Shown: one piece after another, positions 1,221 through 57,057 of the stretch
Layout of the letters: every line of letters starts with the position of its first letter
Position numbering within the stretch: the first letter of the stretch is position 1
Assembly (NCBI GenBank): GCA_964627625.1
Contig: CAZVJB010000011.1
Coordinates: 12,175-76,174, forward strand
Source of the DNA: an uncultured Halobacteriales archaeon
GTDB lineage: Archaea > Thermoplasmatota > E2 > JACPAO01 > JAHFTW01
Direction: 5' to 3'
Length of the DNA stretch: 64,000 nt
The notes under the pieces: model-generated
Database searches by the model: none
The model's input: only the letters and a program-made list of their open reading frames with translations
What the model was told of the DNA's origin: nothing
Translations under genes and position numbers: made by a program

Positions 1221-2009
1221 GTGCCATTTGGTGGCGGTCGCGTGGCAAGGGGGACCAAGTTCAACCTGGTCGCAGAATCAGAGGGGAAGCGACATCGCGT
1301 TGCCAAGATCATCTTCGGAGCTTCGGAGGGCATCTTCGTTACATTTCCTAGGTTCATTCACACGCGAGGACTGGTGTCACGTGCCACGCTCCGGGGCGGT
1401 ATTTCCTTGCCTGCAGACATTTCCCTGAAGGACGGCGGAAAGGTGGCGGGCCACTTGGTCAAGTATGCCCATCACCTGGATGGCGAAGCCCACTTTTCTC
1501 AACACGGCCTGGTCCGAGCCAGCGTGCGCAACGCCTCTGGTCGGCTGGATGCTAACGTGGGACACATTTTCACATTGCAGGCTCAGCGGCTTGAAGGCTT
1601 CGCACCGCCCCGGGAATCGGACAGGACGCCGGCGCTGACGATGCAATTTCGTGAAGTCGTCCCAACCTTGAAAATTACGGGATGGTGGTATCGGATGGAT
1701 AAATTGGAAACTTCGGGCACCCCAGGATTGGGGCCACTCCTCGTCCAAGGACCAAACGGGCAACGAAAGCCTGCCTTCGCCCTGGTTCCGCCAGAATACC
1801 ACCCGCTAGCAAATTGGGTTCTTCTCTTGGTGCCAGAAATAATGCCTCTGCTGTCGGCGAACGGCGCGCCATCGCTCACTTTCATTGGTGGCTTCGATCG
1901 AAAGGAAATCGTGCATGACCATGCCGAAGACACACACTTCCTGGCCCTAATGTACCCCGTCGAAGACTTCGAGACGCTGAAACAGGAACTCGGCGCGATT
2001 GACCTCTGA
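1221..2009 (+). CDS. Hypothetical protein
   Basis: A 262-aa ORF with mixed composition and no extensive overlap with other long ORFs. No recognisable motifs. Confidence 0.35.
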   Translation: MPFGGGRVARGTKFNLVAESEGKRHRVAKIIFGASEGIFVTFPRFIHTRGLVSRATLRGGISLPADISLKDGGKVAGHLVKYAHHLDGEAHFSQHGLVRASVRNASGRLDANVGHIFTLQAQRLEGFAPPRESDRTPALTMQFREVVPTLKITGWWYRMDKLETSGTPGLGPLLVQGPNGQRKPAFALVPPEYHPLANWVLLLVPEIMPLLSANGAPSLTFIGGFDRKEIVHDHAEDTHFLALMYPVEDFETLKQELGAIDL

Positions 2010-3062: not shown

Positions 3063-3689
3063 ATGCCTGGTTTCCAGCCCGTCGTCAGCATCCTCTTTGC
3101 CTTGTGCCTCCTTTCGGGTTGCACAGGCCCCACGCCCGACAGCGACGCGATGCTGGCCTCCACGTACGACTTGCCTGCCGGGGTACGATTGATGCCGATT
3201 TCCGATTCGCACTTCGACGACTACAAGGCCATGCTGGGGCTCAAGGAGAACCCGGGAGTGGCGGACCTGCCCGAAGCCGGCCCCGACGGCCCCGAAAACG
3301 TACCGACGCGCATGGCCGCCGCAGTCCTCATGCGCGAGGCTCCAGAGCGTCTCACCTTCCTCAGCGTCTCCTATACACGCCCAGCGGGCATCCCCGCCCA
3401 GTCGAACCCGGCTGAGTGCGACAAGGGACGCCCGATGTGGGTCCTTGTCTCCGGCAACGAGGTCGCCGAGGTGCGCCTACAGACGCCGAACTACGATTTC
3501 TCCAGCCAAACCACCTCCACTAATCCGTCGGATTCTGCCCAAACTGGAGCGCTACGGGCGGCCCTGATATCTGATCCGGCCCCATCGCCCGCACAGCCGT
3601 CGCAAGCTCTCCTCGGCCAGGCCTGGAGCGACGTCGACGCGATGGGCGCAGCAATCCAGGCCGCAACCGGGGCAACACGGGTCTGCTGA
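3063..3689 (+). CDS. Secreted lipoprotein (signal peptide with lipobox)
   Basis: The N-terminus MPGFQPVVSILFALCLLSGCTG has a hydrophobic core followed by an L-S-G-C lipobox. The mature part is Pro/Ser/Ala-rich. Confidence 0.55.
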   Translation: MPGFQPVVSILFALCLLSGCTGPTPDSDAMLASTYDLPAGVRLMPISDSHFDDYKAMLGLKENPGVADLPEAGPDGPENVPTRMAAAVLMREAPERLTFLSVSYTRPAGIPAQSNPAECDKGRPMWVLVSGNEVAEVRLQTPNYDFSSQTTSTNPSDSAQTGALRAALISDPAPSPAQPSQALLGQAWSDVDAMGAAIQAATGATRVC

Positions 3690-3791
3690 ACCAAAACCTG
3701 TGGAACACTACAGAACGAACCGGTGTTCTCTAAATGGTCGTAACGCCGCGACGATAACCGACGAGGGATAGCAGGGTCGAGGGGGCACTTG

Positions 3792-4012
3792 GGAAGGTTT
3801 TCTGTCCCGGCAGGGAAATGGGTTTCCGTTTTCATGAAGCATCATCGCCCGGATGGGGAAACGGGTTTCCCTTGCGCTGTAAATCGTTTCCCGGGGCGGG
3901 AGAATTGGTTTCCTGGGGCCGGAAATCCGGTTTCCCGGCCGGCCGCAGGGTTTCCCCCATTTCCCACGATTTCCACGCTCCTTCTGTTGGGCACGGTTTC
4001 CCGTGGTTTCCC
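3792..4012. promoter_or_regulatory. Array of GGAAA-N(1-5)-TTTCC palindromes and extra TTTCC half-sites in a ~900-bp intergenic region
   Basis: Directly visible in the sequence. Four inverted pairs: GGGAAATGGGTTTCC (3813), GGGGAAACGGGTTTCCC (3856, a perfect palindrome), GGAGAATTGGTTTCC (3899) and CCGGAAATCCGGTTTCCCGG (3919). At least six further GGTTTCC(C) or TTTCC half-sites follow up to 4012. Only short GC-artefact ORFs overlap the region. Confidence 0.5.
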
Positions 4013-4592
4013 GCCGTGCGGACATTTCATGTCCATAGTGATAAAGCAAGGATCCCAGCGATAGCTGCCCAGCCTGCAGCCGCCCGGCCTGCCACGACGA
4101 AGCCACGCTTCCAGTACGCCAAACTTCCCTTACGGACCTCTGAGCGCCAAGCGCATGCCAGGCGTGGATTGTGACTGGAGGGCTCCGTTACATGGACGAA
4201 CGTGGTCAATCCGCTATGTGGCCGGCTAGAATTTCGTGCTCCAGCAACTGTTCCAGTCTGCGCGCGCCGCCTGAAGGAAGTCCGCAGGATGTTCAATCTG
4301 GAGACCCCAGTGGATTTCGAGGCACCGGTAAACGTGCCCGAGGCGCTTTGGCGCGTCGCCAGGCCTCTTGATATGAGCTAGATGTCTCCTTGGAAGTACT
4401 TTGGCAGACGCCCGATTTCAATGCCCGGATGCTTGGAGGCATCCCCAATGGCCATGACGGCCTGCCAGCTTGGCAACTGCATGACCTCATCTACCACCGC
4501 CGTCGGGACGCCGCTGGGCAAATTTTTGCCGGCCCAATCCAACAGGTGCCCGACAGCTTCGACCGCATCTCAGCGCCGCAATAGGGGCGCAG

Positions 4593-7500
4593 TTGACTTT
4601 TTATCCAGTCCAGGAATACGAAGCCGGTCGACACGGGGAAGGCCCCGCTGCGTCCGCGGCGTTTGAGATGCTGGACCAAAACGGAGGGTTTGGCGAGGAA
4701 CTGGTGAAGTTCGTCGCCGCGCTGCATGGTGGCCTGTCCACGGCGGTGGATGCAATCGCGAGCAACCTGCTGTTTGTCCGGTCCGAGTTCGGCCCTCTGC
4801 CGTACCCGATCCATCTGCTTCACATCGACGTAGGCGGTGGAGTCATCGAAAACCTCCTCGACATCGACGATGACGGCCAACCTGACCTAGGCGTGACGGT
4901 GACTCCCGAATTTTCTGTGGCGGACCCCGGAGGTGGTTCTGGCCTTGGCCTTCGTGGCGTTCACATCGCAATCCGGACGATGCCCGAAGGTCGAATCCTT
5001 TCCGGCCTTCGCTTGGACCTAGGCGTGCGCTTGGGCCAAACGCACGCACTTGATGGGCCCTTCACCGACGCGCGGCAGATTGGAGAATACGTCGTCGTCC
5101 GCCTAGAAGCACCATCCGGTCCGTTTCCCGAACGTCTGAAGGCCACCCTCCGGATTCACCAAGACGGGGAGGAGGGCACCGCGGGGTACACGTCGCGGAT
5201 CATCGGCTACGTCGAGAGTCGCATGCCTGGCATCGCCCCACCTGGTGCCACCCTGGCAATCGGCCACTGGACCTGGAAGGGACCCACACGTCCAGTCGAG
5301 CCGCGAGTACCACCGCGATTCGGGCTCCCGGACTCGATACGTCGGGTCATTCGGGTCCCAAACGAGAGTTCTGAGCCAGATGCGCACGACGAACTCGTGG
5401 CCGAAATCGTGCGACCCGAAGCCGCGCCGAACCTGTTCGGTCTGCCTGCCGAACTCCACCCAGGGGGCGCGCCGCTCGATCCCGGCATACGTTTCGATTA
5501 CTCCGAAACGGTTCTCCAAGCCACGCCGACCAAGACGACGCGTTTCTCCATTCGTGTCGATAGCATTGGAATTGGATTGCGCCTCACGACAATCGAGCAT
5601 CCAAAAAACAAGGCTTTCGGCATGCGCTCAAACCGATTGCCCACTCGCGTCGAGATTGACTATGATCCGATGCGTTCGTGGGAACTACCGCAGTTCATCT
5701 ACACGGCCAATGACACCCTGGGCGATTTTGACATGCGCGCCGAGGACCCAGACGGGGCAAGTGCTCTGCGGCACATGGCCATCCGGGCTGCCGAGGTTCC
5801 GGTTCGCATTGGCTTGCGTTTGGGCGGCAACGCCGGTGCAGACGCGCCCCTGCGCGTCTTCGGCAGCGACTCCGATAATGTCTACAAGCCCATGCCGTCC
5901 GCGCTTGGACGGTTCGTCGTAGTCGGGGGCCGAGACATCGGGACGCTCCCCCCTGCAGAACGGCGAGTCACCAAGCGAGATTTCATTCCGGGTCTAGACG
6001 TAAACGTCCCCTGGCCTGCCCATGCCATCACCTTTGACCTGGACGACACGCCCCCTAGTTCGGTGTTGCCGGCGCGGATGGTGGCCGGAGCGCAGGACCT
6101 GGTGTACCTGCGTGTAGAGGAACGGCCAACGCATGCGCAGGACGCGCAGCACGTCGACCGATGGGATGCCGAGCTCGTCCATGCCGACGAAGGCGCCGGC
6201 CTGGTCGTTGACCTGCGCCGTGCACCGACGCTTCGGCCAGGCGTTGGAACTGGAACCGAGCGCCCCCTCCGACTCCAGGTGTACAAGGTCCCCGCCCCGA
6301 CGGTAGCCGAGAAAGAGCACGCGTCGCGGCTCATTGTTCGGGCCGGTTCGATTCCTGACCGGCTAGTCATCGACTACAAGCACGTAGCAGCGCAGTCCCC
6401 AGCCGATAGCGATTACGTTGGGCTGCGCGTATCGGGCGGAGAGTGCAAACACGTCCAGGCGCTTTTCGTCGACAAACCCGCGGAAAAGACGGACCTGCTC
6501 GGAGCCGGCCGCATTTCCGTTGCCATGCCCAACACGCCCCATGGGTTTGTCGACGTGGCGCGTGACCATGATGGGGCCCTACAAGTCACCTCGTCCGAAA
6601 CGGTCCAGGCTTTTGCAGGCCTCGCGCTCTCAAGGGGGTTGGACGCTGAGGGCGACTTCCAGGGTTTACTCAAGCGCATGGTCATGCACGCGTCGTTGCC
6701 TCCTACCCCTGACGACGGTGCCGCACCGAGCCTAAGGATTTCCGCCTCCGCTGGCACGCTGGCGGTCTCAAGCGCTGGCGTGGGGACTTCAGGACGGATT
6801 GCCCTTGGTGAGACCCTGCTTCTCTCGGTCCGTGCCACCCCCCAAGCGGTCGCCAAACAGGTCTTGGCATGCGTTCCTCGCCCCGCGCACCTAGAAGGGG
6901 GGGAGGGGGGGTTCATTAGCCGGCTGCTGCGGCTGTTGGGACGGCTCCGAGTGCCCAGTCTTGGCGAATGCCGCCAGGGCTTCGAACTGCAACCCAAGCT
7001 AGGGGCCTTGAGCGCACGCGTTATTGGGTTGAGGGAGCTCGAACTGACTTCCAATCCCGAGAACATTCCGGGCCACCTTCCTGCCGGGGGGAGCGAAGAA
7101 GGCATGCGCATCCGGGCAACTTTCTCCGAGGGACGGGTAAACCGAGCCTTCCGGTTCCTACTGGGGGACGTCTGGAAGCCCCGGGATCGCCCGTTGGAGG
7201 AGTACCGGGCGGTCAAGTTCAGGGCAGCGGGCGTTCCGGAGACCGTCGCCTTCTCGTTCCTGAAGGGATCGCCCCTGAACTCCAGCCAGCTCCGAAAACC
7301 ATCGATTGTGCACTTGGATTTGTCCGAGCGTTCCGGCGAGGCCGAACTGGTCCTGGAGCAGCCCGAAATCGCGTACGAATTCCTGCGGAGAGGAGTGCAG
7401 GTGGGGCGCGGCGTGACGATGCTGAGCATCGATTCCCTTCCACGGCGAATGGTCATCACCCAACTCTTCGATGAGCGGTATGCGCCGGGCCTTACATGGC

Positions 7501-8147
7501 CCTGGAATTGGCCTGACCGGCCCGGTGGCTGGAGCCCCGACGGTACGCGGTTCCAGGTAAGCGATGCCACGACCATTCGGGAATTGTTCAAGATTGGGTG
7601 GAGCAAGGATTTCTTGGCGGATTGGGAATGGATACCGCCCGGCTCTGACGGGCTGCTAACCAGCTGGGAGCGACTGCACATCAGCCAACTCGTCCTGAGG
7701 CCGACACGACCCATCGCGGGCGCCGACGGATTGCCGTCTTTCTTCCTGTGGACGCCCTCAAGGCGACCCGCCGAGGGTGGCGACGAGGGCGACCAGGCGA
7801 TTGGATTCGGAACGAGCCCAGGTGTGGCCGTCACGTTGGACGCCGACATCCTGGAACATCGCCGGACGCTCCGAATCGGCGAGAGCAGCGAATTTGACTG
7901 GCAACAGGAAGTCAACCGAGAAATCTGGAAGGCGGTAGCCGAAATACAACTTCAGGACTTCGAGGGCCAAGTCACGGTAAGTCCCACTTTTTCGATGCTG
8001 GAAATCATTGACAGCCCGATTCGTGACAACATAAGGGCCGGCAAGTGGTGGCTCCGAAGCGTGGGTGCGTTGCCCTTCGAATTGGGAAGCGCCGGCCTAG
8101 GCAGCGAAGGCATCCACGGGCTCAACCGCACTCGACTGTTCCCATAG
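4593..8147 (+). CDS. Large hypothetical protein (1184 aa), first gene of a three-gene cluster upstream of the Rhs toxin
   Basis: A long uninterrupted ORF with balanced, globular-looking composition. No signal peptide, TM segment or recognisable catalytic motif. The overlapping antisense ORFs are Arg/Ser/Pro-rich GC artefacts. Confidence 0.6.
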   Translation: MTFYPVQEYEAGRHGEGPAASAAFEMLDQNGGFGEELVKFVAALHGGLSTAVDAIASNLLFVRSEFGPLPYPIHLLHIDVGGGVIENLLDIDDDGQPDLGVTVTPEFSVADPGGGSGLGLRGVHIAIRTMPEGRILSGLRLDLGVRLGQTHALDGPFTDARQIGEYVVVRLEAPSGPFPERLKATLRIHQDGEEGTAGYTSRIIGYVESRMPGIAPPGATLAIGHWTWKGPTRPVEPRVPPRFGLPDSIRRVIRVPNESSEPDAHDELVAEIVRPEAAPNLFGLPAELHPGGAPLDPGIRFDYSETVLQATPTKTTRFSIRVDSIGIGLRLTTIEHPKNKAFGMRSNRLPTRVEIDYDPMRSWELPQFIYTANDTLGDFDMRAEDPDGASALRHMAIRAAEVPVRIGLRLGGNAGADAPLRVFGSDSDNVYKPMPSALGRFVVVGGRDIGTLPPAERRVTKRDFIPGLDVNVPWPAHAITFDLDDTPPSSVLPARMVAGAQDLVYLRVEERPTHAQDAQHVDRWDAELVHADEGAGLVVDLRRAPTLRPGVGTGTERPLRLQVYKVPAPTVAEKEHASRLIVRAGSIPDRLVIDYKHVAAQSPADSDYVGLRVSGGECKHVQALFVDKPAEKTDLLGAGRISVAMPNTPHGFVDVARDHDGALQVTSSETVQAFAGLALSRGLDAEGDFQGLLKRMVMHASLPPTPDDGAAPSLRISASAGTLAVSSAGVGTSGRIALGETLLLSVRATPQAVAKQVLACVPRPAHLEGGEGGFISRLLRLLGRLRVPSLGECRQGFELQPKLGALSARVIGLRELELTSNPENIPGHLPAGGSEEGMRIRATFSEGRVNRAFRFLLGDVWKPRDRPLEEYRAVKFRAAGVPETVAFSFLKGSPLNSSQLRKPSIVHLDLSERSGEAELVLEQPEIAYEFLRRGVQVGRGVTMLSIDSLPRRMVITQLFDERYAPGLTWPWNWPDRPGGWSPDGTRFQVSDATTIRELFKIGWSKDFLADWEWIPPGSDGLLTSWERLHISQLVLRPTRPIAGADGLPSFFLWTPSRRPAEGGDEGDQAIGFGTSPGVAVTLDADILEHRRTLRIGESSEFDWQQEVNREIWKAVAEIQLQDFEGQVTVSPTFSMLEIIDSPIRDNIRAGKWWLRSVGALPFELGSAGLGSEGIHGLNRTRLFP

Positions 8148-8154
8148 GTGATGC

Positions 8155-9544
8155 ATTGCTGAAACTCATTCTACACCACACATACAACAATGGCCGCGCC
8201 ACTGACGTCTCCGGCCACGACAACCACGGCGTGGCCCTGCGCGTCACTTCGGTCGGCTCGTCCCTGCGCCTCCTTGGGGGAGCCAGCGAGATTCGAGTCC
8301 CGCCATCACCTTCTCTTGCCGGCCTCAACGCGGTTCGCGTCCGCCTGCGTTTCCGTTGGGAACCCAGCCAGGGGGCAAACCTCCGGACAGGCATGACCCT
8401 CGTCAAGGGTGACGCCTCGTTCTTCATCTTCGTCACGAAGAACCGCCGACTCCACGCCGGAATCCTCGATGCCAGCGGCGTGATGAACGGGGTCCTGAGC
8501 GAAGCGGTCATCGATGCGCATCGCTGGCATGAATTGGAGTTCCGCCACGACGGCATGGCCAGCGCCCAGATGGTGCTCGACGGCCAGCTGGTTGCCCAAA
8601 GGGACGACATCCAAGGCCCCGTTCGGAGCGTCGGCCCCGGCGGCATTGTAATCGGTCGCTGGGATGTGTTCCAGGGATCCATCGAACCACCAAACCCAGA
8701 AATCTTCGACCCAAACCTCTTCGGCTTCGTTGGCCAAGTCGATGACTTCCGACTAGACAAAGAATACATCGACAGGGACGGCCTCCTTGACCCCTGCTGC
8801 AATGACGGGCCGACATTAGGCCAAGCTATTCGCTCCAACGAAAGGAGTCCGGATGGCGCCAAGCCGCGAGCCGTCCTTGTAACGCTCCGGGCACTGGAGT
8901 CCCAAGTTCGCGCGCAGGCGATTGCAGGTGACCCCACGCGCTCGGCTCGCATTCGCGGCCTCGCGACCCGCGGCGGGAGAGCAATCGCTGAAAAACGACT
9001 GCCGGCAGCGCTAGCCATCGCCAGCGAAGCCCTTCAATTCCTTCGTGAACGGATGACCCAGCAGGAAATCGAAGCGTTCCAGGCTCGGGCAATCGACGCC
9101 ATAGAGGCCACCCCTCAAGCAGCCCCGCTTGCACGATACCGCCGTACCAAGGACGCGAAAGATCTTGAGCCCTTCCGACCGCTGGCCGCAGCTCTTTGCC
9201 GGCCCCTGCCTACGGATGGTCAATCCGGCCCTCCGGTGACCGGAGAGACATTAGGAATGCATGACTTGCGCCTACCGGCCCCGGCTCGGGCCGCGGCGAC
9301 AATTAGGGACTCTTCCTCTCCTACCATGTCTAGCATCGGCAGCAGGCCGTTGGTACCATCTTCTATCCGACAGGACCTGGGCGGGGCTCCCCACCCTTCG
9401 ACGGGTGCGCAATCTACTTCGGACAAACCTGGCTTCCCGCGCAAGCCGAGCGGGAGGAAACGCCGGAAGCATCGCCATCGCCATCGATGCAGATGCTGCT
9501 GTCACTGCAGGCCCTCGCGCGGCCCATCCAACAACCCAAGGTGA
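8155..9544 (+). CDS. LamG/concanavalin-A-like lectin-fold domain protein with a disordered basic C-terminal tail
   Basis: The pattern RVRLRFRWEP...LVKGDASFFIFVTKNRRLHAGILDASG...HELEFRHDG...MVLDGQLVAQRD...IVIGRWDV resembles a laminin-G-like jelly roll. The start is ambiguous: TTG near 8155 or Met at 8387. The ORF overlaps the 3' end of the upstream gene. The Lys/Arg/His/Cys-rich tail may be partly non-coding. Confidence 0.45.
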
Positions 9545-9549
9545 ATCAA

Positions 9550-19700: not shown

Positions 19701-22293
19701 AGATGCGCGCGGCTTTATCATGCCTGACCCCGCCGATATGTATGACGGATTCATCAACGTCGATGGAAACCTCGTCACACATACCTACGACGGGCAGAAC
19801 CGCCTGATCGAAACGAAGCGCGAACTGCGCAAGGACGGAACGAGCACAAGCACTCTTACGGCCTACATTTTCACGAGGCAAGAATGGGACGCAAACGGCA
19901 ACCTGGCCTCCATGACGGACGATGCAGGCCACAAGACCGTCTATGACTACGACCGCCAGGGCCGCCTCGTCGCGGAAACGTTTGCAGATGGCACGCAGAC
20001 TGAACACGAATACGATGCTGCGGGTAACCTGGTCAAGCGCGAAGACGCGCTCGGCAACGTAATCAAAGTAGAGTACAGCCCAGGAAGAAGCGCCGTTCGC
20101 GTAAATGTAGCAGGGCCTGCCACTCGTTCGACCCTGCAATCCTTCGAATACGACGGCCTTGGCAGGATGACGCGCGCCTCGGACAACAACGACCCTTCGA
20201 CGACCGTGGACGACGCCATCGATTCCTTCACGTATGATTCGATGTCCGAAACGGTCCTACAGGTCCAGAACGGCAAGACCGTTTCGCGTGCCCACGATGG
20301 ATTAGGCTCCGTCACGAGCCTCGTGTACCCAAACGGCCGCACCGTGACGAAGGAATATGATGCGCTTGCACGCTTAACCGAGGTCCTGGATGATACTGGC
20401 CCGCTGGAGACATACACCTATGGGACCGGCCGGCTGGTATCCAAACTAGCGGGCAATGGCGCTCTGACCGAATTCACTTATGACAGTAACCGCCGGGTCG
20501 CATCAATTGCGACGCCCGACGTCTGGGACTATGACGTCGAGTTCCAATACGAATATGACCGCAATGGTCAGGCCACGAGTGTAGACATGCCGCATGCGCC
20601 GCTTTGGGGCAGCACCTTTTCCTATGATTCCGCCGGCCGGCTCACGAGCGCCGAAAAGGTTGTCCACACGACACCGGCGTGGTGGTACCAGTTACCGCGC
20701 GACACGATGGCGTCGCGAACCGACTGGACTCTGGATACGACGAACAATTGGGTCGGCGTCTCCGTCCAACGTGATGGGGAGGCTACAGTCAATCAAGCGC
20801 GGACGCATGGCCCCCTGGACCAACTCACGTCGACGACGGTGAGTGAAGTCAAAACGCAAGTGACGCATGACGTCGTCGGCAATCGGCTGGCGGACGCCAA
20901 GTACACGTATACGTGGGATGCTTTCAATCGCCTACGAACCGTTTCGCAGGCGACGACGGGCTTCCAGATTGCGATGTATACGTATGATGCACTTGATCGC
21001 CGCGTCTCTAAGGCAGTTTCTGGCATCACGACGACCTACATCTATGATGGCGCTAACGTTATCGAAGAACGCACCTGGGCCGACGTCGTTCTGCGGCAGT
21101 ACGTGCACGGCAGCGGCGTCGACGAGCACCTGGTCATGGATCGAGACCTCAACGGCGACGGAACAGCAACTGGTGCTGGCGACCAGCGGCTCTATTTCGT
21201 GCAAGACCGGCTTGGCAACGTCGTTGGCCTCATGGATTCCGCGGGCTGGTTCAAGGAAGGGTATCTGTACGAGCCGTATGGCCAAATGGTCATCGTCCAA
21301 CCCGGCCTCGACACCGTGCTTAATTGGGGCGAAGACGATGTCATCGCAGCAACCTCGGCTTACGACAACCCCTACTCGTATACGGGTCAACGCGTTGACC
21401 AAGAGACGGGCCTGTACTACTACAGAGCCAGGTACTACGACGCCGATAGTGGACGATTTCTTAGCCGGGACCCTATCGGCATCTGGAAGGACTCAGGCAA
21501 CTTCGGGAACGGATACGCATATGCGGGTTCGAACCCCGTCATGTTCAGTGACCCATCGGGATTGTGCTTCATCATCTGTGATGGATGCGGGGTCATGGAC
21601 CTTGTTTGCGGCCTTCATGAGACCTTCAATCCGAATGGCGAATGCATGCTTACGGACAATCTCTGGTGCCATCCGGAATGTGGTAACTTCGACTTGACGT
21701 GCGAGATTCCAGCGTCAATCAACGATTGTATGCAACCCAAGAACGGATGGGAGGCGACGGGGTGCATCGTGACGGGGGTTGCTGTGGCCACTATTGCGTG
21801 TCATTTCTCGACGACATGCCTCCAGCTTGCCAGAGCGACGTGGACAAGATGGGGGGCTCCCCTGATTACCGGAATCGTGAATTTCTTCAAGGGGCCGGGC
21901 GACGACGCGGTCACTGCAACCGTGGCCTCAACGTCTCGGTACTCAGGCCTACGCGAAATAGGGGCCAATTTGTGGGAGTCCGTCAAGGGGCTTCGGTACG
22001 GGCCCGATCGAATTTGGGGAAATCGTGCGGAGCACGTGATAGGGGGCCATACTCCGGGCGGGGCAGGGACCGCCGGAAAAACGGTTTTTAATGTAGGTAA
22101 AGATCACGTTTTCTCGCTGATTGATGATGCGTGGGCCATGAAGGGGGCTGGGACGGTACAAAGCAATGGCAACACCTTGTATCGCGTAGATATGGGCAGA
22201 ACTATTGGGACGGGCGGTGAAAGGTTTATCGACATCATCGTCAGGACAGGTAGTTCGGACCTTATCACGGCATTTCCCCGGGGGGGAATTTGA
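13756..22293 (+). CDS. Giant Rhs/YD-repeat polymorphic toxin (~2845 aa): signal peptide, poly-Pro, Cys-rich DxDxDG repeats, FN3 domains, YD-repeat shell, Rhs core (DPxGL), C-terminal toxin domain
   Basis: There are dozens of YD-repeat units (YDPYGRQLS, TYDMSGRI, YEYDYGGRI, YFYDGFGHL, FTYDSNRRV...). The Rhs core ends RARYYDADSGRFLSRDPIG...YAYAGSNPVMFSDPSGL. Four CxDxIDNDxDGxxDxxDPxC repeats are present, plus FN3-like units (DWSVPTSDGGSPITGYEVFG, ATWSPPASDGGYAITKYSFYRG). The start is moved from the track's 13471 to an in-frame GTG at 13756, giving a Sec-like signal peptide (M)PRPRIARVVGLTALCFILASTAAEA. Confidence 0.85.
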   Translation: MPRPRIARVVGLTALCFILASTAAEATPIAPNLESPANNAHLPDPWDCDPKGPWNEAWDDACVFYSWDQGGWSPCRPDGTYELHYWETKGFGSAYKWDDSGTCHLEVTDGWIGCEVFWTVRFQDSSGWSPNSPVFRWTIGDEDDCSNTSPPPPPPPPPPPPPPAPGDAPDCGDEIDNDGDGYIDWAGIDSSGIDSDPSCLGHWWVESEDPWNAPPPPTSPPSACNDGIDNDSDGYTDDHDPRCDYNHMSTESPADPPPPPPPCDDEIDNDDDGMTDADDPACAFYPYDTESPINPLPSCQDEVDNDSDTLIDSEDPGCDYSPAYADESRPPPGPTPVAWVSVKCGYAPGHIIITYGVEGVHDSAQLGRRVTGSGVAPSSVNGASPVLDSYTVIGTEYDYQLTVRYNGDVFTSSAIARIYAGRIPDAPALEANAGPTAGTIDVNWSTGGGWCEPHTYNLYGSMHPTSGYAKIANRLTPTSFTEQDVSPNTWRFYRVTASNSIGESPLSNIGYARTLDLPNAPTVTVTPGDKQLAVDWSVPTSDGGSPITGYEVFGAKPGNPMELLAEPETPGITHDSLEYDETWNYEVRAVNDVGPGPPGEGTGKTWGVPEAPKHFVGNPGPAASEIEATWSPPASDGGYAITKYSFYRGTSAGSTTFVADITDLTDLSYDDTGLAGGTTYYYEVTATNEASEGPPAKAMATPPQRPLPPRDLTAGVPGAGVKLDWLPPMWNGGSPLTTYTAYASPDGLTYTAVGTVAPGTLTYTAVPCAASCTYYMTASNVFGESDRSNIVPQNIPLQKESIRGTTPGSGAGLKQGFPCVNPAKETVNLVSGQFVASMCLMHARSEYKGLNVSIVATHRAESTGKDFIGNNWYLSVNRRLEIVDTGIILTSGTGRTDGFLAAGPGTYTPPPGFYDRLAAIPSGFLLEHVGGVKEYFDGTGLRTRVEDVSGNTVEFRHDTSGKLYEITDAHGRITRLDYDQEKLVKITDFSDRITTLAYDAAGNLETITLPSDDEPSEATYGFTYTNRNAIATAQDPNENVYMENDYDASGRVAEQTNVDGTFTFAYEPSAHKTTVTDKNGNIVEWGYKAAQPLPLYQTVYMNREVSPDQPTTQMTRFTTNENLEITQVSAPDGIVTKFAFDVGNPNPIAQGNVVREELLPPAGSTLPPLVTTFTYESLYQNVKTITPPEGNDPNYAPQNGGSWSASRYTTTFYYGQDETTLSQDLNLDGITTGSEGLLVRVTRPELNAAGPPAAGMAGGNQEQVECWIYNDQGQVIQHIATDGRLTNHVYEDGFLLETTEGGAMALPTCEAAPPPMMAAMAAPTNFPSDVPETPTEGLRTSHFSHDAVGNLISFTDPSGRTTKYEVDALDRVTRILMPGPLKADVKITYDANGNVISTQTRNVAQAVDGSISLDPDNEYLVDSFAYNALDQKVEEWLTAARPTGSVDSNTPTSVHQKYGYDKNGNLIILRKTNSVAGTDGNDAETYIYNERNELIANTRGGLNPLFTHIEANAGVDVDDLTDPFALYLHTRDNVQTAVTCVVSKTQPIDVTQVTKASQCAPNSLCTTTPKEILGGMNVTLGPPPIVGTGTPECIKAALRNPMNQTWPQDPRLQTAPPLLPNAGSGIGLVPGYMPLSDATMTWEYNGAYSFSDVRLSAVFWALPYEASTSSTIAWKVRVYSGNILVASNDQVTGTAFPAPTGNQAREYRISMNAASFAGSNLRLEIEAMSGQARLVLFDSPGAPSRLEIGNAVTTSTTYDVGGRVTSTTDGGGAQTSYSYDPYGRQLSTVNPTGTRTTSTYDMSGRIITAEAYGALGGIGWHTETMATVLLQRMHMRYDEAGRLFQSDVARFDPATGASLPDVGLTPGDGFATTQYEYDYGGRITKKTDDNAASHTYFYDGFGHLVSETDAGGNTAQYVYNANGQPIKATTTETYPGASGTETSSTTALFSYDDAGHLVRAVDNAGNARRNGYDSRGNLAWESDARGFIMPDPADMYDGFINVDGNLVTHTYDGQNRLIETKRELRKDGTSTSTLTAYIFTRQEWDANGNLASMTDDAGHKTVYDYDRQGRLVAETFADGTQTEHEYDAAGNLVKREDALGNVIKVEYSPGRSAVRVNVAGPATRSTLQSFEYDGLGRMTRASDNNDPSTTVDDAIDSFTYDSMSETVLQVQNGKTVSRAHDGLGSVTSLVYPNGRTVTKEYDALARLTEVLDDTGPLETYTYGTGRLVSKLAGNGALTEFTYDSNRRVASIATPDVWDYDVEFQYEYDRNGQATSVDMPHAPLWGSTFSYDSAGRLTSAEKVVHTTPAWWYQLPRDTMASRTDWTLDTTNNWVGVSVQRDGEATVNQARTHGPLDQLTSTTVSEVKTQVTHDVVGNRLADAKYTYTWDAFNRLRTVSQATTGFQIAMYTYDALDRRVSKAVSGITTTYIYDGANVIEERTWADVVLRQYVHGSGVDEHLVMDRDLNGDGTATGAGDQRLYFVQDRLGNVVGLMDSAGWFKEGYLYEPYGQMVIVQPGLDTVLNWGEDDVIAATSAYDNPYSYTGQRVDQETGLYYYRARYYDADSGRFLSRDPIGIWKDSGNFGNGYAYAGSNPVMFSDPSGLCFIICDGCGVMDLVCGLHETFNPNGECMLTDNLWCHPECGNFDLTCEIPASINDCMQPKNGWEATGCIVTGVAVATIACHFSTTCLQLARATWTRWGAPLITGIVNFFKGPGDDAVTATVASTSRYSGLREIGANLWESVKGLRYGPDRIWGNRAEHVIGGHTPGGAGTAGKTVFNVGKDHVFSLIDDAWAMKGAGTVQSNGNTLYRVDMGRTIGTGGERFIDIIVRTGSSDLITAFPRGGI
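14203..14250 (+). repeat. CCG/CCA codon repeat encoding ~16 consecutive prolines inside the Rhs gene
   Basis: The sequence ccgccgccgccacctccgccgccgccaccgccaccgcctccc translates to SPPPPPPPPPPPPPPPPAPG. Confidence 0.8.
21565..22293 (+). other. C-terminal polymorphic toxin module of the Rhs protein: 12-Cys-rich segment followed by an unassigned ~110-aa His-containing domain
   Basis: It begins right after the DPSGL autoproteolysis-type motif: CFIICDGCGVMDLVCGLHETFNPNGECMLTDNLWCHPECGNFDLTCEIPASINDCMQPKNGWEATGC... then GNRAEHVIGGHTPGG...LYRVDMGRTIGTGGERFIDIIVRTGSSDLITAFP. No known toxin family recognised by eye. Confidence 0.6.
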
Positions 22294-22601: not shown

Positions 22602-23066
22602 TTACAGTGTCTCCATTTTAGCCGGCGCCGGAGGCAGGCCGTACTGGAAGGCGTGGCCGTTGGCGCGACAAACCAAGAGGCCCAAGCGCATGAGTCGCGT
22701 GAGGCGGTTTCGGGTGGTGGATCGTGGCCATCCCCAATGCACTTGCGCGTGTTCAATGATGGATGCTTGGCTGCGCGTCAAGTCATGGTCGAACAAGTCC
22801 AGGAGCCTCACCATGTGTTCATTCAAGGGGCGCTCACCCGGTCGCTCCGGTGGACCAGGGCGAAGGAAGACTTGCCCGCCTTCGGCACGTCGAACGACCG
22901 CCAGAATTTCATGACGGGCTACCGCCATCACGTAGTACCTGGCTACCGGCACGCATAGATCAGTCCCTCTTGCGACGGCCCGTAGTGAGCTGCCGGGTCG
23001 CTTCGACGCAAATACTCGAACGCGCTCTCGCCGCGCCTCGCCCTCGTGGGCCCGCGGCGTACCCAC
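22602..23066 (-). CDS. Two-domain winged-helix (wHTH) transcriptional regulator
   Basis: Two HTH units: FASKRPGSSLRAVARGTDLCVPVARYYVMAVARHEILAV and IEHAQVHWGWPRSTTRNRLTRLMRLGLLV. The second motif is shared with paralogs at 33593-34125 and 47703-48440. Confidence 0.6.
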   Translation of the reverse strand: MGTPRAHEGEARRERVRVFASKRPGSSLRAVARGTDLCVPVARYYVMAVARHEILAVVRRAEGGQVFLRPGPPERPGERPLNEHMVRLLDLFDHDLTRSQASIIEHAQVHWGWPRSTTRNRLTRLMRLGLLVCRANGHAFQYGLPPAPAKMETL

Positions 23067-29432: not shown

Positions 29433-31406
29433 ATGCATTGTCTACGCGGGGCTGGACGGTTGGCCTGCGTTGCTCTACTGATGGTTTGGGTGGCGTCAAC
29501 CGTAGAGGCGGCGATTACGCCCATTTCCCCGGCCGATCCCGATGGCGCGCTAGTCTTCGCTCAAGCCATGGCACCAGGTGAGGCTTCCACGACTCTCGTC
29601 ACAAGCGCGAAGTGGATCCATTATGGGAGCTGCAACACGATGGTGTCGCCCACCATCAAGTGCCCCGCCCCTGACGGCCCATCGGCGCTTGGTCCCGCGG
29701 GCTATGCTGATGCGGCCCTCACGGAACCGTTCGGCATTCGGGACGGCCGGTTGGTGGCCCTCATGACGACCGGATTGGCGGCCGCCGCCGACCAACCCCA
29801 GAGCCGTGTTCAATCCAGCGACAACCGCGACCGCATCGGCGATGTCTTTGATGTAACCATTATCCAAATTGATTTGGAGGTACCAAGCGGCCACGACTGC
29901 TTGGCATTCGATTTCCAGTTTCTGACGGAGGAGCCGCAGCGACCGGAAGGCCAAGTCACAACTGGGGACATTTTCCTTGCCGAATTGGACGCCAATACTC
30001 TCGGCGTCTCGAAGACCGGATACCTTGCGCAGCAGAATTTTGCAGTCGCACGCGTTGAGGACAAGCCTGTTCCTGCCACGAGTTTCACTCTACCGTTCGG
30101 GACCAAGCCTGCCTTGCTCAACCCCGGCAATCCAGATCAGGGGACGGTTTACGACCGCGGCTCGCAGGTTTGGACGGCGCGTACGGTCATGGCACCCGCG
30201 GGCGGCGCCCACCGCCTGTACCTGAGCTTCTACGAACGTGGCCTGGCCACACAGGACAGCGGCGTCCTTCTGGACAAGCTCGACACCTTCTCGTCGACGC
30301 AGCGGCCCTGCGGCCCGGAGGCGCCCTTGGCCAAGGTGCCGCCGCGCATTGCCTTCACGGCATCCCAGGCTCGAGCCTGTGGCATGAATTCCGTAATCTT
30401 CGAGGACAACAGCACCACCGGCAGCGAGGCTCTGCATTCGTGGGAATGGGATTTCGGTGACGGCGCGACCGGAAATGGCCAGAAAACAAACCACACGTAT
30501 GCCAGCGGGGGCTCCTACAACGTAACGCTGATTGTAACCGATCAGGGCGGCATGTCGAACTCGACTACGGTCCCAATCCGCGTCGAGGGTGAAGTGCGGT
30601 GTTCGAACGGTGTCCCTGAACAAGGCCACGACGTGCCCGCCAACACGCCGGCCGAGCAATCCCGCGGGACGACGGGACTCGGCGGCGGGCAGTGCGTTGG
30701 TGATCAGGACGGCGCTGCAGGGTGCGGGTCGGGAGGAAAGGGCGCCCCCGAGTCTCCAACAGCCGCAGGCGACTTCCTCACAAAGCATAGCCGCGACCCG
30801 ATTCCAGCACTGCTTCTTGTTCTGGCTGTTGGGTCCGGCTTAATGGCGCTTCGCCGCTGGTGGCCTGCGATTGGGGGCCTATACGCACGACTTGTTGGCC
30901 GCGACCTACTCGACCTCGAAACGCGACGGCAAATTGTCGATTTCATCCGAGCAAACCCGGGAAGCTCCTACCTAGCCGTCGCAAAGCGCCTCGAGAAGGG
31001 GCGGGGGGCAGTAGCGTACCATTTGCGCGTCCTCGTGAAGGGCGGCGCGCTCTATCGCCACGAATGGCAAGGCACAGTCGGCTACCACATAGCTGAGCCA
31101 GGTACGAATCCAGCACACTTCGACGCAAGCGCCGCCTTGCGCTCGAAGACTGCATGGCGCCTCCTGCTCCGGCTCGCCGAGTGTTCAGCCGCGGCCCCGC
31201 CGGCGCTATCCGCGGCGCTTGGCGTCTCGCGAAACACGATCCGCTACCACCTGCGGCGCTTGAGCAATGCGCGGCTAATCGAGGTGGCGGATGGGTCCAC
31301 CCGTCGTGAATACCTCTTGACGCCCCTGGGGCGGAGCTGCCTCCAGGAAGCGCATGGCGGGCATCCCACTTTCGTGCCGTCGTCCGACGCCAGCCAGCAC
31401 GCGTGA
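29433..31406 (+). CDS. Membrane-spanning one-component regulator: signal peptide, extracellular PKD domain, single TM, two cytoplasmic wHTH domains
   Basis: Signal peptide LACVALLMVWVASTVEAA. PKD signature SWEWDFGDGATGNGQKTNHTYASGGSYNVTLIVTD. TM helice IPALLLVLAVGSGLMALRRWW. Then ETRRQIVDFIRANPGSSYLAVAKRLEKGRGAVAYHLRVLVKGG and ALGVSRNTIRYHLRRLSNARLIEV. Confidence 0.65.
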   Translation: MHCLRGAGRLACVALLMVWVASTVEAAITPISPADPDGALVFAQAMAPGEASTTLVTSAKWIHYGSCNTMVSPTIKCPAPDGPSALGPAGYADAALTEPFGIRDGRLVALMTTGLAAAADQPQSRVQSSDNRDRIGDVFDVTIIQIDLEVPSGHDCLAFDFQFLTEEPQRPEGQVTTGDIFLAELDANTLGVSKTGYLAQQNFAVARVEDKPVPATSFTLPFGTKPALLNPGNPDQGTVYDRGSQVWTARTVMAPAGGAHRLYLSFYERGLATQDSGVLLDKLDTFSSTQRPCGPEAPLAKVPPRIAFTASQARACGMNSVIFEDNSTTGSEALHSWEWDFGDGATGNGQKTNHTYASGGSYNVTLIVTDQGGMSNSTTVPIRVEGEVRCSNGVPEQGHDVPANTPAEQSRGTTGLGGGQCVGDQDGAAGCGSGGKGAPESPTAAGDFLTKHSRDPIPALLLVLAVGSGLMALRRWWPAIGGLYARLVGRDLLDLETRRQIVDFIRANPGSSYLAVAKRLEKGRGAVAYHLRVLVKGGALYRHEWQGTVGYHIAEPGTNPAHFDASAALRSKTAWRLLLRLAECSAAAPPALSAALGVSRNTIRYHLRRLSNARLIEVADGSTRREYLLTPLGRSCLQEAHGGHPTFVPSSDASQHA

Positions 31407-38452: not shown

Positions 38453-38568
38453 TCCATGAGGGGATAGCGCCCGAGAATGCCGTGGACCGTTGCTTCCATA
38501 CGCCGGGCCGCCGTCCCAGTCACGTGCGTCGTAGACAACCCCCCTCGTCCGACTCTTGGGAGCAGAAG

Positions 38569-39105
38569 ATGGCCTTCAGCGAGGAGCTCGACCTGAAGTT
38601 GCAGGATCTCGGTTTTTCTGCTCACTTCGCCCGTGTCCGCCGTTCCATCGATCGCTTCACGCACTTCGAGAACGAACCCATCTCGCGGGACGCCATGGAA
38701 GCCTTGGAGGACGACTTCCTCGATGCGGTCGAAGCTGTCCGGCACCTGTTCGATTGGGTCCGCAAGAATTTGCCCAGCGGCGTCTCAACCGCGGTACTGG
38801 ATGGAGTAACTCAGTTGCCAAGACAGCAGGCCGTCAAGGCCATTGGCGATGCCTCCAAGCATCGGGGCATTGAAGTTGGGCGTCTGCCGAAGTACTTTCA
38901 AGGGGACATCTGGCTGAAATCAAGCGGCCAAACGACGCGCTACGAGAGCCTCGGGGACTTCTACCGGCGCCTCGAAATCCACTGGGGCCCCCAGGTCGAA
39001 CATCCTGCTGATTTCCTACGGGCGGCCCTCGCAGACTGGGAACACCTGCTCGAGAAGGAAATCCTGGGCAGCCAAATAGCAGACCGACTACGCCCGCCCG
39101 AATAA
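38569..39105 (+). CDS. Hypothetical protein (~178 aa)
   Basis: The ORF is trimmed to the internal Met (MAFSEELDLKLQDLG...). Balanced composition, no recognisable motifs. Confidence 0.35.
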   Translation: MAFSEELDLKLQDLGFSAHFARVRRSIDRFTHFENEPISRDAMEALEDDFLDAVEAVRHLFDWVRKNLPSGVSTAVLDGVTQLPRQQAVKAIGDASKHRGIEVGRLPKYFQGDIWLKSSGQTTRYESLGDFYRRLEIHWGPQVEHPADFLRAALADWEHLLEKEILGSQIADRLRPPE

Positions 39106-39173
39106 CGTCGGCCGCCACTCACAATCCACGCCTGGAGAGCGCGACGGCATCTCATCGCCTCGATTCGCGCTGC

Positions 39174-40013
39174 TTACGGCACCCTAGTCAGTCCTCGGAG
39201 CAACTCGTGCCGTATCTTGACGAGAAGGCGCTGCGTGTTGCGGGCCTCCCATACCAGATAGGTTCCTAGACCGAGGCCCAGCCCCGCTCCAGTCAAGACC
39301 AGGGGCCAGCTTCCGCCTGACCCTATCGAGGCCACGCTCGTAATCATGCCGGCGAGAACCAAGGCGAGGCCGGCGTTTAGCTCGAATTTTAGTTGAACAA
39401 CGCGGGTGCGAAGGTAGCGGTGACCGACGGCCTCGATTTCGTAGCACAACCGCAGGTACGCATGCCAATCGCCCATTACGTCAATGTCGTCGGCGACGTT
39501 CCGGTTTCGCCGCGTCGCAGCATCCTCCAGCCCTTTGTCCCAGCGGGCCTCGAGGTGGGTCCCGGCACTCTCCAGCGTCATTCCAAACAGGAGAATTGCC
39601 CCTGACAATCCGAAAAGTGGCATCGGCTCGGCCCAAGCGATTGCAGGGACCAGACCCCAATTTGAACCGGCCAGGATCATTGCTCCAACGACCAAGGAGC
39701 CGGGCACCACCAGGCGCGTGAACGGCCCAAGGATTTCGGATTCAATGGTGGAGAGGATGCTCTTCACTCGGGGGCCACCGTTCATGGTACGCTTGAGCGT
39801 TTTGGGTCGCAGAATCCGAACCTGGCCTAGATATCCCTCGTCGGAGACCGTGACGAATCCTGTGGGCTTCCTCGTCGAATAGGATGATTCGCCAGCCGAC
39901 AGGACCGTGAACTCAACTTGATCTAGAGCCCGCGCGCGCCCTCTGGCGTTTCGGATGAAGGAAGCGCCATCCGGACCAGAACACCACCGAGGCGGTAGGA
40001 ATGGTGAGGACAT
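39174..40013 (-). CDS. Hypothetical multi-pass membrane protein
   Basis: Several hydrophobic helices (LVVPGSLVVGAMILAGSNWGLV, MPLFGLSGAILLFGMTL, LALVLAGMITSVASIGSGGSWPLVLTGAGLGLGLGTYLVW). The start is uncertain. A second small membrane ORF overlaps at 39913-40122. Confidence 0.35.
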   Translation of the reverse strand: MSSPFLPPRWCSGPDGASFIRNARGRARALDQVEFTVLSAGESSYSTRKPTGFVTVSDEGYLGQVRILRPKTLKRTMNGGPRVKSILSTIESEILGPFTRLVVPGSLVVGAMILAGSNWGLVPAIAWAEPMPLFGLSGAILLFGMTLESAGTHLEARWDKGLEDAATRRNRNVADDIDVMGDWHAYLRLCYEIEAVGHRYLRTRVVQLKFELNAGLALVLAGMITSVASIGSGGSWPLVLTGAGLGLGLGTYLVWEARNTQRLLVKIRHELLRGLTRVP

Positions 40014-42175: not shown

Positions 42176-43330
42176 GTGCACTCCAACGACGTGAACTCAG
42201 CCCTAGCTCGGCTCCTGAAGGATTTCCCGAAGGACAAGTTCCCGGACGAGATTCGCCGACTCGGGGCCTTGGCCCAATACAAGTACGATGAGTACCAACA
42301 ATTCGCCCCGGGACGGTACTTCATGGAGAGCCTCGTTTCGTGGCTCGGCCGCATCCCCGAGAACCATCGCCAAGCGGCCTTCAACTTTGTTCGCGACCGG
42401 CTTGTTTTCTTCGGCCGCGGTGACATCTACCACTTTGCCCAGGTCGCCTATCAACACCTCATCCGCAGTTTCCTGGTGACTTCGGAAACCCAGGCGCTCA
42501 AGCTACCGATTCACAAGCGCCCCAAGATCGCGCAATCAAGATATTTCCGGGCTCTCGAACGCAATTCCCTCTTCATTGGCCTCAGCGACGGTGCCCGCAT
42601 CGACGACTTTCGCCGCCTTGGAGAGTTGCACAACGACCAAGTCCACTCTAGCTACCACGTAACCCCAGACCGGCTGACAGAAATGATCAGGTCGTGGACC
42701 GATCACCGTGACACGAACGCGGCCGACGTCGCCGCAGAAGGGATTGGCGAAATCTCGGCGATGAAGGTCCGGCGCATCTTCCTGGTCGATGACCTTTCCG
42801 CCAGCGGTACCAGTGTCATCGACTACGACGAACTCGCTCAGAAATGGAAGGGGCGGTACCCGACGTTCATCAACCTCGTGCTGGGCGACGACGTCTACCC
42901 TGACTTGGACCAAGCCAACCTCGAAGTCCACCTCGTGTTCTACGTCGCAACGGATCAGGCGAACGCCGACGTGAAAAGCAAGATTGATACGTTCAACGCG
43001 AAACGAAAAACGGCCGGCAAACTCACGGCGTCCACGGAGATCCTGACGGTCCAGCCGTTGCCCGCGACACTTGCAGTCGGCCAGCAAGTCAATGACTCTC
43101 GGTACCGCGACTTCATCGACGCCTATGACATGACGGGCTCGTACGACAAGAGCATGGCAAAGGGCGGGCCGGATGGCCACCAAAAATGGGGCTTCAAGAA
43201 ATGCGCTCTCCCGATTGTCTTGTACCACAACTGCCCGAACAACACCATAGGCCCAATCTGGATGTACCCCGGTGAGAAGGGCATGCAAGGATTGTTCCCG
43301 CGCGTTCGCCGCCACTGGTGGGACACCTAA
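42176..43330 (+). CDS. Protein with C-terminal phosphoribosyltransferase (PRTase)-like domain and unknown N-terminal domain
   Basis: The GTG start is 3 nt after the upstream stop. The PRPP-loop-like motif RRIFLVDDLSASGTSV matches the hhhhDDhxoTGxT consensus. The ~215-aa N-terminal region is unassigned. Confidence 0.5.
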   Translation: MHSNDVNSALARLLKDFPKDKFPDEIRRLGALAQYKYDEYQQFAPGRYFMESLVSWLGRIPENHRQAAFNFVRDRLVFFGRGDIYHFAQVAYQHLIRSFLVTSETQALKLPIHKRPKIAQSRYFRALERNSLFIGLSDGARIDDFRRLGELHNDQVHSSYHVTPDRLTEMIRSWTDHRDTNAADVAAEGIGEISAMKVRRIFLVDDLSASGTSVIDYDELAQKWKGRYPTFINLVLGDDVYPDLDQANLEVHLVFYVATDQANADVKSKIDTFNAKRKTAGKLTASTEILTVQPLPATLAVGQQVNDSRYRDFIDAYDMTGSYDKSMAKGGPDGHQKWGFKKCALPIVLYHNCPNNTIGPIWMYPGEKGMQGLFPRVRRHWWDT

Positions 43331-47702: not shown

Positions 47703-48440
47703 TTATTGTGAAACGCGTGGCAGGCGTTGTCTTTGTGGGACGCTGTAGGTGCGCTGGCGGCCGGGTCTGGCTCGAATGAGCCCGGCGTCCTCGAGTTGTT
47801 GGAGGCGGAACTGCGTGGTGGAGCGGGGCCAATTCCAATTTGTCTTGGCATGGTCGATGATGTTGGATTGTGGCGCGCGTTTGTGCGTCTGGATGAAACG
47901 CAGTAACTCCTCGAACCGCTCGTCGGCGAATAAGAGGCGGCGCTTCCAGTCTCCGGGAGCCAATCCAACCCAAATCGCGGTGCGGTTGCGCCACGTTCGC
48001 GTCGCCACGATGTGCAGCGCCTCCAGATGCGCTACGTAGGCCGCCGTTTGACTAGCGCCCAAACCGACGCGCCTGGCCAGTTCCCGCATCCAAATGCCTG
48101 GGCACTCCTGGATCACTTTGAAGATACGCCTGGATTCAGCCACATGCAAGGCATACTGCGACGTGGATGGGATGCGGCGCGACGCCGCAACTGGCTTGCA
48201 GTGAACCAGGGTGGCAGCACCAACCTTGGCTTGCCAAAGAAGACCCTTGGCAACCAGTTGCCTAACGTGGCCGCCAACAATTGGCCGGCTAAGGCCCGTC
48301 TGCTGCACGATGTGATGCAGGCGCACAGGTTCCGCCTCGGACGCCGCAGCCAAAACGCGCACCTCATCCCCGGCGCGCAACATGTAGCCGCGGCTGCGAC
48401 TCAAATCCGACGCCGCCTGCACGAATCGACGACGACGCAC
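47703..48440 (-). CDS. Multi-wHTH transcriptional regulator (three helix-turn-helix units)
   Basis: Three units: RLHHIVQQTGLSRPIVGGHVRQLVAKGLL; IQECPGIWMRELARRVGLGASQTAAYVAHLEALHIV; IDHAKTNWNWPRSTTQFRLQQLEDAGLI. The last carries the W.WPRSTT..RL..L signature. Confidence 0.6.
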   Translation of the reverse strand: MRRRRFVQAASDLSRSRGYMLRAGDEVRVLAAASEAEPVRLHHIVQQTGLSRPIVGGHVRQLVAKGLLWQAKVGAATLVHCKPVAASRRIPSTSQYALHVAESRRIFKVIQECPGIWMRELARRVGLGASQTAAYVAHLEALHIVATRTWRNRTAIWVGLAPGDWKRRLLFADERFEELLRFIQTHKRAPQSNIIDHAKTNWNWPRSTTQFRLQQLEDAGLIRARPGRQRTYSVPQRQRLPRVSQ

Positions 48441-56973: not shown

Positions 56974-57057
56974 CCCCCGCCCCGCCGGCTGAATCAATCG
57001 AGCGCACCGAAACCACCGACCCGACGAGAGACATCGCCGAGCGCCCCAGGGTCGGTA

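Follow-up and report, generated by a model that had tools for sequence, protein, structure and literature searches.

Genomic setting of the array

The window (the whole stretch of DNA that was analysed, 64,000 nucleotides in length) has a GC content of about 60% and is archaeal in its gene content, encoding a proteasome-activating nucleotidase, a type II methionine aminopeptidase, and an archaeal Hsp20, as well as wHTH proteins that match Pfam families with haloarchaeal names. The array studied here is situated in a stretch of 903 bp that an earlier, sequence-only reading had described as a 900-bp non-coding gap. No intact gene was found in this stretch, although it includes the remnant of a pseudogene at 4151–4569. 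The features of the locus are listed below, with positions counted from the first base of the window.

3063–3689, plus strand: orphan gene of 208 aa upstream of the array, lipobox-like at its N-terminus (LLSGC) and ending in a stop codon about 100 bp ahead of the array
3684–3743, no strand: the 60 bp richest in AT near the array, a modest 55% AT (99th percentile of the window), just 3′ of the stop of the lipoprotein gene
3792–3962, plus strand: eight contiguous units of 21–22 bp with the approximate consensus GGGAAAnnGGTTTCCCGG, from TRF, repeat families, and unit alignment
3813–3827, no strand: dyad 1, GGGAAATGGGTTTCC, which fits GGAA-N6-TTCC, read from the sequence
3856–3871, no strand: dyad 2, GGGAAAC-GG-GTTTCCC, a perfect inverted repeat, read from the sequence
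3919–3938, no strand: dyad 3, CCGGAAATCCGGTTTCCCGG, imperfect, with a spacer longer by one base, from sequence reading and repeat search
3951–3977, plus strand: three same-strand TTTCC half-sites spaced by 9–10 bp, GTTTCCCCCA / TTTCCCACGA / TTTCCACG
3995–4013, plus strand: tandem pair GGTTTCCCGT / GGTTTCCCG with a 10-bp period and 100% match
4020–4034, no strand: separate palindrome GGACAT-TTC-ATGTCC, abutting the array on the right and followed by the mildly AT-rich ATAGTGATAAAG, read from the sequence
4151–4569, minus strand: 5′-truncated pseudogene interrupted by an in-frame stop and by two frameshifts, from repeat search and tblastn (E = 5e-39)
4598–4670, plus strand: probable start region of the 1184-aa gene, comprising a TATA-like TTTTTATC (4598–4605) and an in-frame ATG at 4668

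The array thus lies between two 3′ ends, those of the gene at 3063–3689 and of the minus-strand pseudogene at 4151–4569. A window-wide repeat search identified this pseudogene as an inverted copy of 38722–39142 (nucleotide identity of 73–84%), which corresponds to the 3′ part of an intact orphan gene of 207 aa at 38482–39105, and the translated alignment covers residues 81–201 of the 207-aa protein. Homology between the copies is lost at 4569/4570, some 23 bp short of the longest-ORF start of the 1184-aa gene, which points to a rearrangement or insertion junction at this position. The two members of the inverted pair (4151–4569 and 38722–39142) bracket 34 kb of DNA containing the three-gene module described below, along with RHS, PKD-domain protein, and UvrD helicase genes. 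For the 1184-aa gene, the ATG at 4668 is the probable true start, which would fit the observation that the homologues align from approximately query residue 39. The array had been placed just upstream of the 1184-aa gene cluster by the sequence-only reading; instead, the pseudogene is located between the two, and the likely promoter and start of the gene are about 590–650 bp away.

The 1184-aa gene opens a module of three ORFs (4593–11232) encoding proteins of 1184 aa, 499 aa (with a weak laminin-G match), and 581 aa. An exhaustive HMMER search retrieved homologues of the 1184-aa protein at approximately 34% identity, none of them close. The corresponding loci (L206–L212) carry the same module, in which a protein of about 1100 aa is followed by one of about 400 aa with a laminin-G-like domain and one of about 560 aa, on contigs with a GC content of 0.71–0.74 and bacterial features such as genes for an ECF sigma factor and cytochrome bd. 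The presence of the module in high-GC, bacterial-looking contigs suggests inter-domain horizontal transfer. Upstream of the module, these loci have 72–146 bp with no occurrence of GGTTTCC, so that the array is not conserved along with the module. Just downstream of the module in the window, an ORF of 2940 aa (13471–22293, plus strand) contains RHS repeats and a fn3 domain and resembles a polymorphic toxin.

All genes flanking the array are orphans when set against 5.8 billion protein clusters, and the 1184-aa, 208-aa, and 207-aa proteins returned self-matches alone in a word-indexed search. Likewise, a scan of GTDB genomes yielded no relative, and a search of plasmid DNA gave no match. The orphan flanks, together with module homologues found solely in bacterial-looking contigs lacking the array, point to mosaic accessory DNA. 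To the left of the array, an ORF of 262 aa (1221–2009, plus strand) has a full-length homologue at 28.5% identity, a hypothetical protein of conjugative Legionella plasmids (L213, at 39146–39946 of the Legionella longbeachae plasmid pLLO-F1157CHC), which may be a further hint of accessory, horizontally mobile DNA.

Repeat anatomy and motif statistics

The dense GGAAA/TTTCC array within about 220 bp that had been noticed from the sequence alone was borne out by sequence reading and a pentamer listing, which gave 13 TTTCC/GGAAA pentamers across 198 bp (3814–4011). Exact TTTCC occurs on the plus strand at 3823, 3866, 3887, 3909, 3931, 3951, 3960, 3970, 3997, and 4007, and exact GGAAA starts at 3814, 3857, and 3921, with 10 of the 13 motifs sharing one strand. 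The whole 64 kb contains 179 such pentamers, and the next densest interval of 250 bp holds 4. When 64 kb of sequence was simulated under a first-order Markov model (n = 100), the densest 220-bp interval contained on average 3.7 and at most 5 pentamers, and the Poisson probability of at least 13 pentamers per interval was about 1.7e-13. No other interval of 220–250 bp, in the real 64 kb or in the simulated sequences, exceeded 5 pentamers. Similarly, the heptamer GGTTTCC was found 7 times on the plus strand within 3821–4011, compared with 19 times elsewhere in the 64 kb. The array is therefore non-random, far beyond chance.

Each unit within 3792–3962 is a GGAAA-N3/4-GTTTCC dyad or a decayed form of it, unit 3 (3835–3855) being a decayed one. 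Six of the eight units have an exact right arm (TTTCC); three have an exact left arm (GGAAA), and three more have a left arm with one mismatch. This more frequent retention of the right arm suggests constraint on a directional site. Most of the information content resides in GGTTTCC(C), and the flanks are near random: the unit alignment shows a mean column identity of 60%, and residual likeness outside the heptamer includes, for example, CCCGG. The GC content of the array is 58–61%. The motifs had been described as irregularly spaced at 10–35 bp, but their arrangement proved to be regular. Repeat families of 19–23-nt copies are spaced at 43/43/42 and 43/43/22 bp, the dyads follow the 43/43/22-bp register, TRF reported a 22-bp tandem period at 3886–3938, and the half-site pairs have a spacing of 10 bp. 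The array is the sole non-coding tandem repeat reported by TRF in the 64 kb, and with eight units of 21–22 bp it falls within the definition of iterons as at least three direct tandem repeats of 17–24 bp sharing a core. Helical phasing of the sites (Rayleigh R = 0.65 at 10.7–10.8 bp) is merely suggestive, because it was not significant after the scan of periods (permutation p = 0.18).

Regarding the individual elements, three inverted repeats with exact pentamers were confirmed (3813–3827, 3856–3871, and 3919–3938) rather than the four originally counted, and three further dyads carry one mismatch (3794, 3879, and 3899). The perfect palindrome GGGGAAACGGGTTTCCC reported previously is present at 3855–3871, and its core at 3856–3871 is a perfect 7-2-7 inverted repeat. 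The estimate of at least six further GGTTTCC half-sites was too high, as four exact copies lie outside the dyads (3907, 3949, 3995, and 4005), accompanied by three variants (CGTTTCC once and ATTTCC twice). Beyond the palindrome at 4020–4034, a 15-bp tandem pair, AGCTGCCCAGCCTGC / AGCCGCCCGGCCTGC, is located at 4063–4092.

The array is non-coding. A coding repeat was rejected based on motif spacings that are not multiples of three and on the lack of codon-position GC bias in 3700–4250, unlike the flanking genes, where this bias is present; the small ORFs across the array had no family matches. A structured RNA was likewise rejected, given folding z-scores of −0.38 (plus strand) and −1.63 (minus strand) against shuffled sequence, and Rfam returned nothing credible for the array, its sole match being a 21-bit chance match to a plant miRNA. 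A dispersed repeat of the REP, BIME, or MITE type was discarded as well, since the intergenic DNA of the 64 kb contains no other good copy of the dyad and only one near-match, a site with one mismatch at 2042. Elsewhere in the window, two GC-rich elements of approximately 135–145 nt and about 81% identity (57053–57175 and 62752–62888, plus strand) share a 12-bp terminal stem, GGTCCTCCCGGC/GCCGGGAGGACC, with a compensatory change from U-A to C-G and two compensatory pairs overall. They matched no Rfam family and are candidates for a structured RNA or a palindromic mobile element.

Partner-protein search and comparison with known arrays

The ORFs neighbouring the array contained no rep, primase-helicase, par, integrase, transposase, or regulator domains according to Pfam, NCBIfam, and PHROGs, and specifically no ParA, ParM, ParB, or RHH domains; the other ORFs scanned in the window gave no replication, partition, or recombination domains. 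The sole regulator-type (wHTH) matches are located at least 18 kb from the array, at 22602–23066, 29433–31406, and 47703–48440. The 657-aa protein encoded at 29433–31406 (plus strand) displays an unusual architecture, in which a PKD domain is joined to a C-terminal pair of wHTH domains. The ORF at 2189–2875 has a vaguely HTH-like N-terminus; its structure model was unusable (mean pLDDT of 48), and no PDB sequence matched it. A literature search for the GGTTTCC heptamer as a prokaryotic binding site returned nothing relevant.

Iterons of theta-replicating plasmids, such as the seven 22-bp iterons of the R6K gamma origin and those of the pPS10, F, and P1 RepA-type origins, are the closest in build. 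In iteron plasmids, direct and inverted copies of the core serve as sites for Rep monomers and dimers, respectively. The array resembles them in its approximately eight head-to-tail units of 21–22 bp and in the occurrence of the core as both direct and inverted repeats. It differs in that only 7–8 bp per unit are well conserved, the host is archaeal, and neither a rep gene nor a clear AT-rich unwinding element was detected. To our knowledge, iteron-type origins are poorly documented in archaea. The proposal of a plasmid-type replication or partition site is thus in keeping with the repeat architecture and at odds with the lack of a rep or par gene in the vicinity.

Scans of public collections for patterns of paired dyads or triple half-sites yielded no archaeal relative; they returned many unrelated bacterial and viral repeats, including CRISPR-like and coding ones. 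Arrays of GGAAA-N-TTTCC dyads or GGTTTCC half-sites are common in such DNA, frequently in the form of tandem or coding repeats. One of these matches (L205), with a 24-bp period, was set aside as a probable coding repeat (GNPFPVES). Two high-GC viral contigs from IMG/VR, L003 (6637–6752) and L007 (4918–5045), carry 6–10 GGTTTCC/GGAAAC heptamers in 110–130 bp, each array starting immediately 3′ of the stop of a gene for a primase-helicase (Toprim + AAA_25 in L003, Prim-Pol + AAA_25 in L007). The C-terminal segment of the L003 primase-helicase reads as winged-helix-like by eye, where Pfam reports Toprim and AAA_25 alone. The region 3′ of a primase-helicase gene is the usual site of a short-iteron origin, and both arrays are probably origins of this kind. 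They share the heptamer with the array in the window, in mixed orientation in L003 and as direct copies at 19–32-bp spacing in L007. In contrast, the window has no Toprim or Prim-Pol + AAA_25 counterpart, tblastn with both replicases against the window gave no match, no protein is shared between the window and either contig, and the two contigs are probably bacterial elements. We regard this resemblance as analogy rather than homology, because the contigs were selected by motif and viral contigs often contain GGTTTCC(C) triplets.

Centromere and operator arrays bound by RHH proteins include the omega heptads of pSM19035, parC of R1, and parH of TP228. These likewise present a heptamer-scale motif about ten times, in direct and inverted orientation, for cooperative reading by small dimers. 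Their motifs, however, are contiguous or spaced by 11 bp at the promoter of a par operon, whereas spacings of 10 or 21–22 bp are found here, and no parA/parM or small partner gene is present. Another point of comparison is provided by the NrpR operators of methanogens, in which GGAA-N6-TTCC occurs singly or in pairs over nitrogen-assimilation promoters (PMC2723118). This pattern was found 6 times in the window compared with 1.2 expected, and the dyads at 3814–3827 and 3857–3870 fit it exactly. Nevertheless, the array comprises 13 sites and overlaps no promoter, nitrogen-assimilation genes are lacking, and no nrpR-like gene was found among the scanned ORFs of the window.

Possible roles of the array

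We tentatively interpret the array as a multi-site platform for one sequence-specific DNA-binding protein, iteron-like in build, that would serve the maintenance of accessory DNA. A constrained directional heptamer within diverging units, the mixed orientations, and the half-sites that fall out of register argue for a protein-binding array over a neutral repeat. The position away from promoters, between two 3′ ends, and the rearranged, orphan-rich, and partly horizontally acquired region make accessory-DNA maintenance (replication control or partition, at a site that is possibly orphaned) the single most likely role; we put it forward cautiously, because the array is accompanied by neither an initiator or partition gene nor a clear unwinding element. 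The iteron- or operator-like arrangement suggested by the sequence-only reading is therefore partly supported, namely by the tandem units, the combination of dyads with directional half-sites, and the conservation focused on the heptamer.

In such a platform, the recognised unit would be the directional heptamer GGTTTCC(C), present once per unit of 21–22 bp, about two helical turns, and recurring after the eight units as two tandem pairs spaced at 10 bp. An inverted left arm (GGAAA) would make a dyad of the site in some units. Monomers may occupy single half-sites and dimers the dyads, all facing approximately the same side of the helix, and adjacent bound proteins could touch one another to build one large nucleoprotein complex. 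The role, present or past, may be that of initiator or copy-control iterons or that of a partition site, and the array may by now be orphaned from the gene of its protein. A more far-reaching proposal, which we consider quite doubtful, is that the array is an active origin, copy-control, or partition site of an undescribed archaeal replicon or chromosomal maintenance system operating independently of Orc1/Cdc6 and ORBs. It would require an unrecognised initiator or centromere-binding protein, encoded by a neighbouring orphan gene or elsewhere in the genome. Counting against the maintenance role, no rep, primase-helicase, par, or integrase gene was detected in the window, and neither a second array nor element boundaries were found.

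Possible as well, though on balance not probable, is a multi-site operator or upstream control region in which a dimeric regulator (wHTH or RHH) binds the dyads, spreads over the half-sites, and acts as repressor or activator of a neighbouring transcription unit, its target being the distant 1184-aa cluster or an unannotated transcript starting from approximately 4017 (minus strand) or 3760 (plus strand). The geometry of the six dyads, three of them exact and three nearly so, with half-site centres about 9–10 bp apart, is typical for dimeric regulators, and the two dyads with the NrpR form are consistent with this role, as are the several wHTH genes of the window and the TTTATC-like hexamers at 4040–4045 (minus strand; the weaker one) and 4598–4605. 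Nonetheless, a pseudogene separates the array from the likely promoter of the 1184-aa gene, at a distance of about 590 bp; none of the promoters in the 64 kb carries a good copy of the dyad; and the homologous modules have short upstream regions devoid of the heptamer. Together, these points weaken the operator interpretation. The left arms are also far less preserved than the right ones, which is unexpected for a symmetric dimer, and no regulator gene is adjacent. The suggestion that a local wHTH protein uses the array as its operator is accordingly possible in principle, with the distance to the nearest wHTH gene and to the promoter speaking against it. Somewhat unlikely in our view is a functionless, decaying tandem duplication, i.e., a minisatellite whose 22/43-bp unit was amplified by slippage, the motif density then reflecting shared ancestry. 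The regular periodicity of 21–22 and 43 bp, the residual similarity beyond the heptamer, and the decaying neighbourhood with its pseudogene and rearrangement junction would agree with this origin, and so would the failure to find a partner protein or an adjacent functional module. Divergence is uneven, however, with GGTTTCC exact in 7 copies and flanks far less alike; the additional half-sites at 3951–4013 are off the 22-bp register and have different flanks. Moreover, TRF reported no other non-coding tandem repeat in the 64 kb, so the genome seems not to be prone to such repeats.

The terminal or attachment region of a mobile element, with sub-terminal transposase sites or arm-type integrase/excisionase sites, is an improbable alternative. 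Directional sites at 21–22 bp near a rearrangement junction and beside horizontally acquired genes would suit it, and the viral contig L083 has a GTTTCC array next to the gene of a tyrosine integrase. On the other hand, the window yielded neither a transposase nor an integrase and lacks a mirrored array, and no direct repeat of the tRNA-Val gene was found as an island end. The ends of Tn7, Mu, and lambda att have fewer than thirteen sites, and the 13 sites here exceed those of known element ends. The array might also be transcribed into a non-coding RNA that acts as a protein sponge through repeated GGGAAAC (minus strand) or GGUUUCC (plus strand), which we judge to be very improbable. The strand bias of the motifs is compatible with such an RNA, and the minus-strand TTTATC at 4040–4045 could put the start of transcription close to the array's right edge; against it stand the folding energies, no better than those of shuffled sequence, the want of a credible Rfam match, and the absence of an oligo-T terminator.

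Scarcely credible, finally, is a chromosomal replication origin of the ORB type bound by Orc1/Cdc6, and the ORB-like origin element proposed earlier is unsupported. The archaeal ORB consensus is CTTCCAGTGGAAACGAAAGGGGT (PMC4153887), and the GGAAAC hexamer common to ORBs and the array is also found inside the ORB core TTCCAGTGGAAAC (PMC4153887). Yet neither ORB nor mini-ORB (TTCCAGTGGAAAYG...GGGGT) had any match in the 64 kb at up to 3 mismatches, and the ORB core TTCCANTGGAAA had a single, distant match (46818) at up to 1 mismatch, compared with 1.0 expected. Unlike ORBs, the array lacks a TTCCA-N-TGGAA dyad and a G-string, it has no orc1/cdc6 neighbour, and a strong AT-rich unwinding element is missing, the maximum within 3300–4560 being 55% AT over 60 bp. 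The flanking ORFs had no Pfam, NCBIfam, or PHROG match, and the only ORC-CDC6-like match is encoded at 43318–45390 (plus strand), about 39 kb from the array. This 690-aa protein (PF24389, 'ORC-CDC6-like') is not a canonical Orc1/Cdc6. Neither gene strand nor GC skew switches at the array, so that the skew analysis recommended for detecting origin activity showed no change at this site.

The architecture of the array is of a known kind, and the example described here is an uncharacterised one in an archaeon from a poorly sampled lineage. If it is merely a decaying repeat, it has no wider consequence. If, as in the accessory-DNA maintenance reading that we favour, a protein binds it, the array would represent a rare iteron- or centromere-like multi-site element in an archaeon and would provide a bait for a new archaeal DNA-binding protein involved in replication control, partition, or the silencing of acquired DNA.
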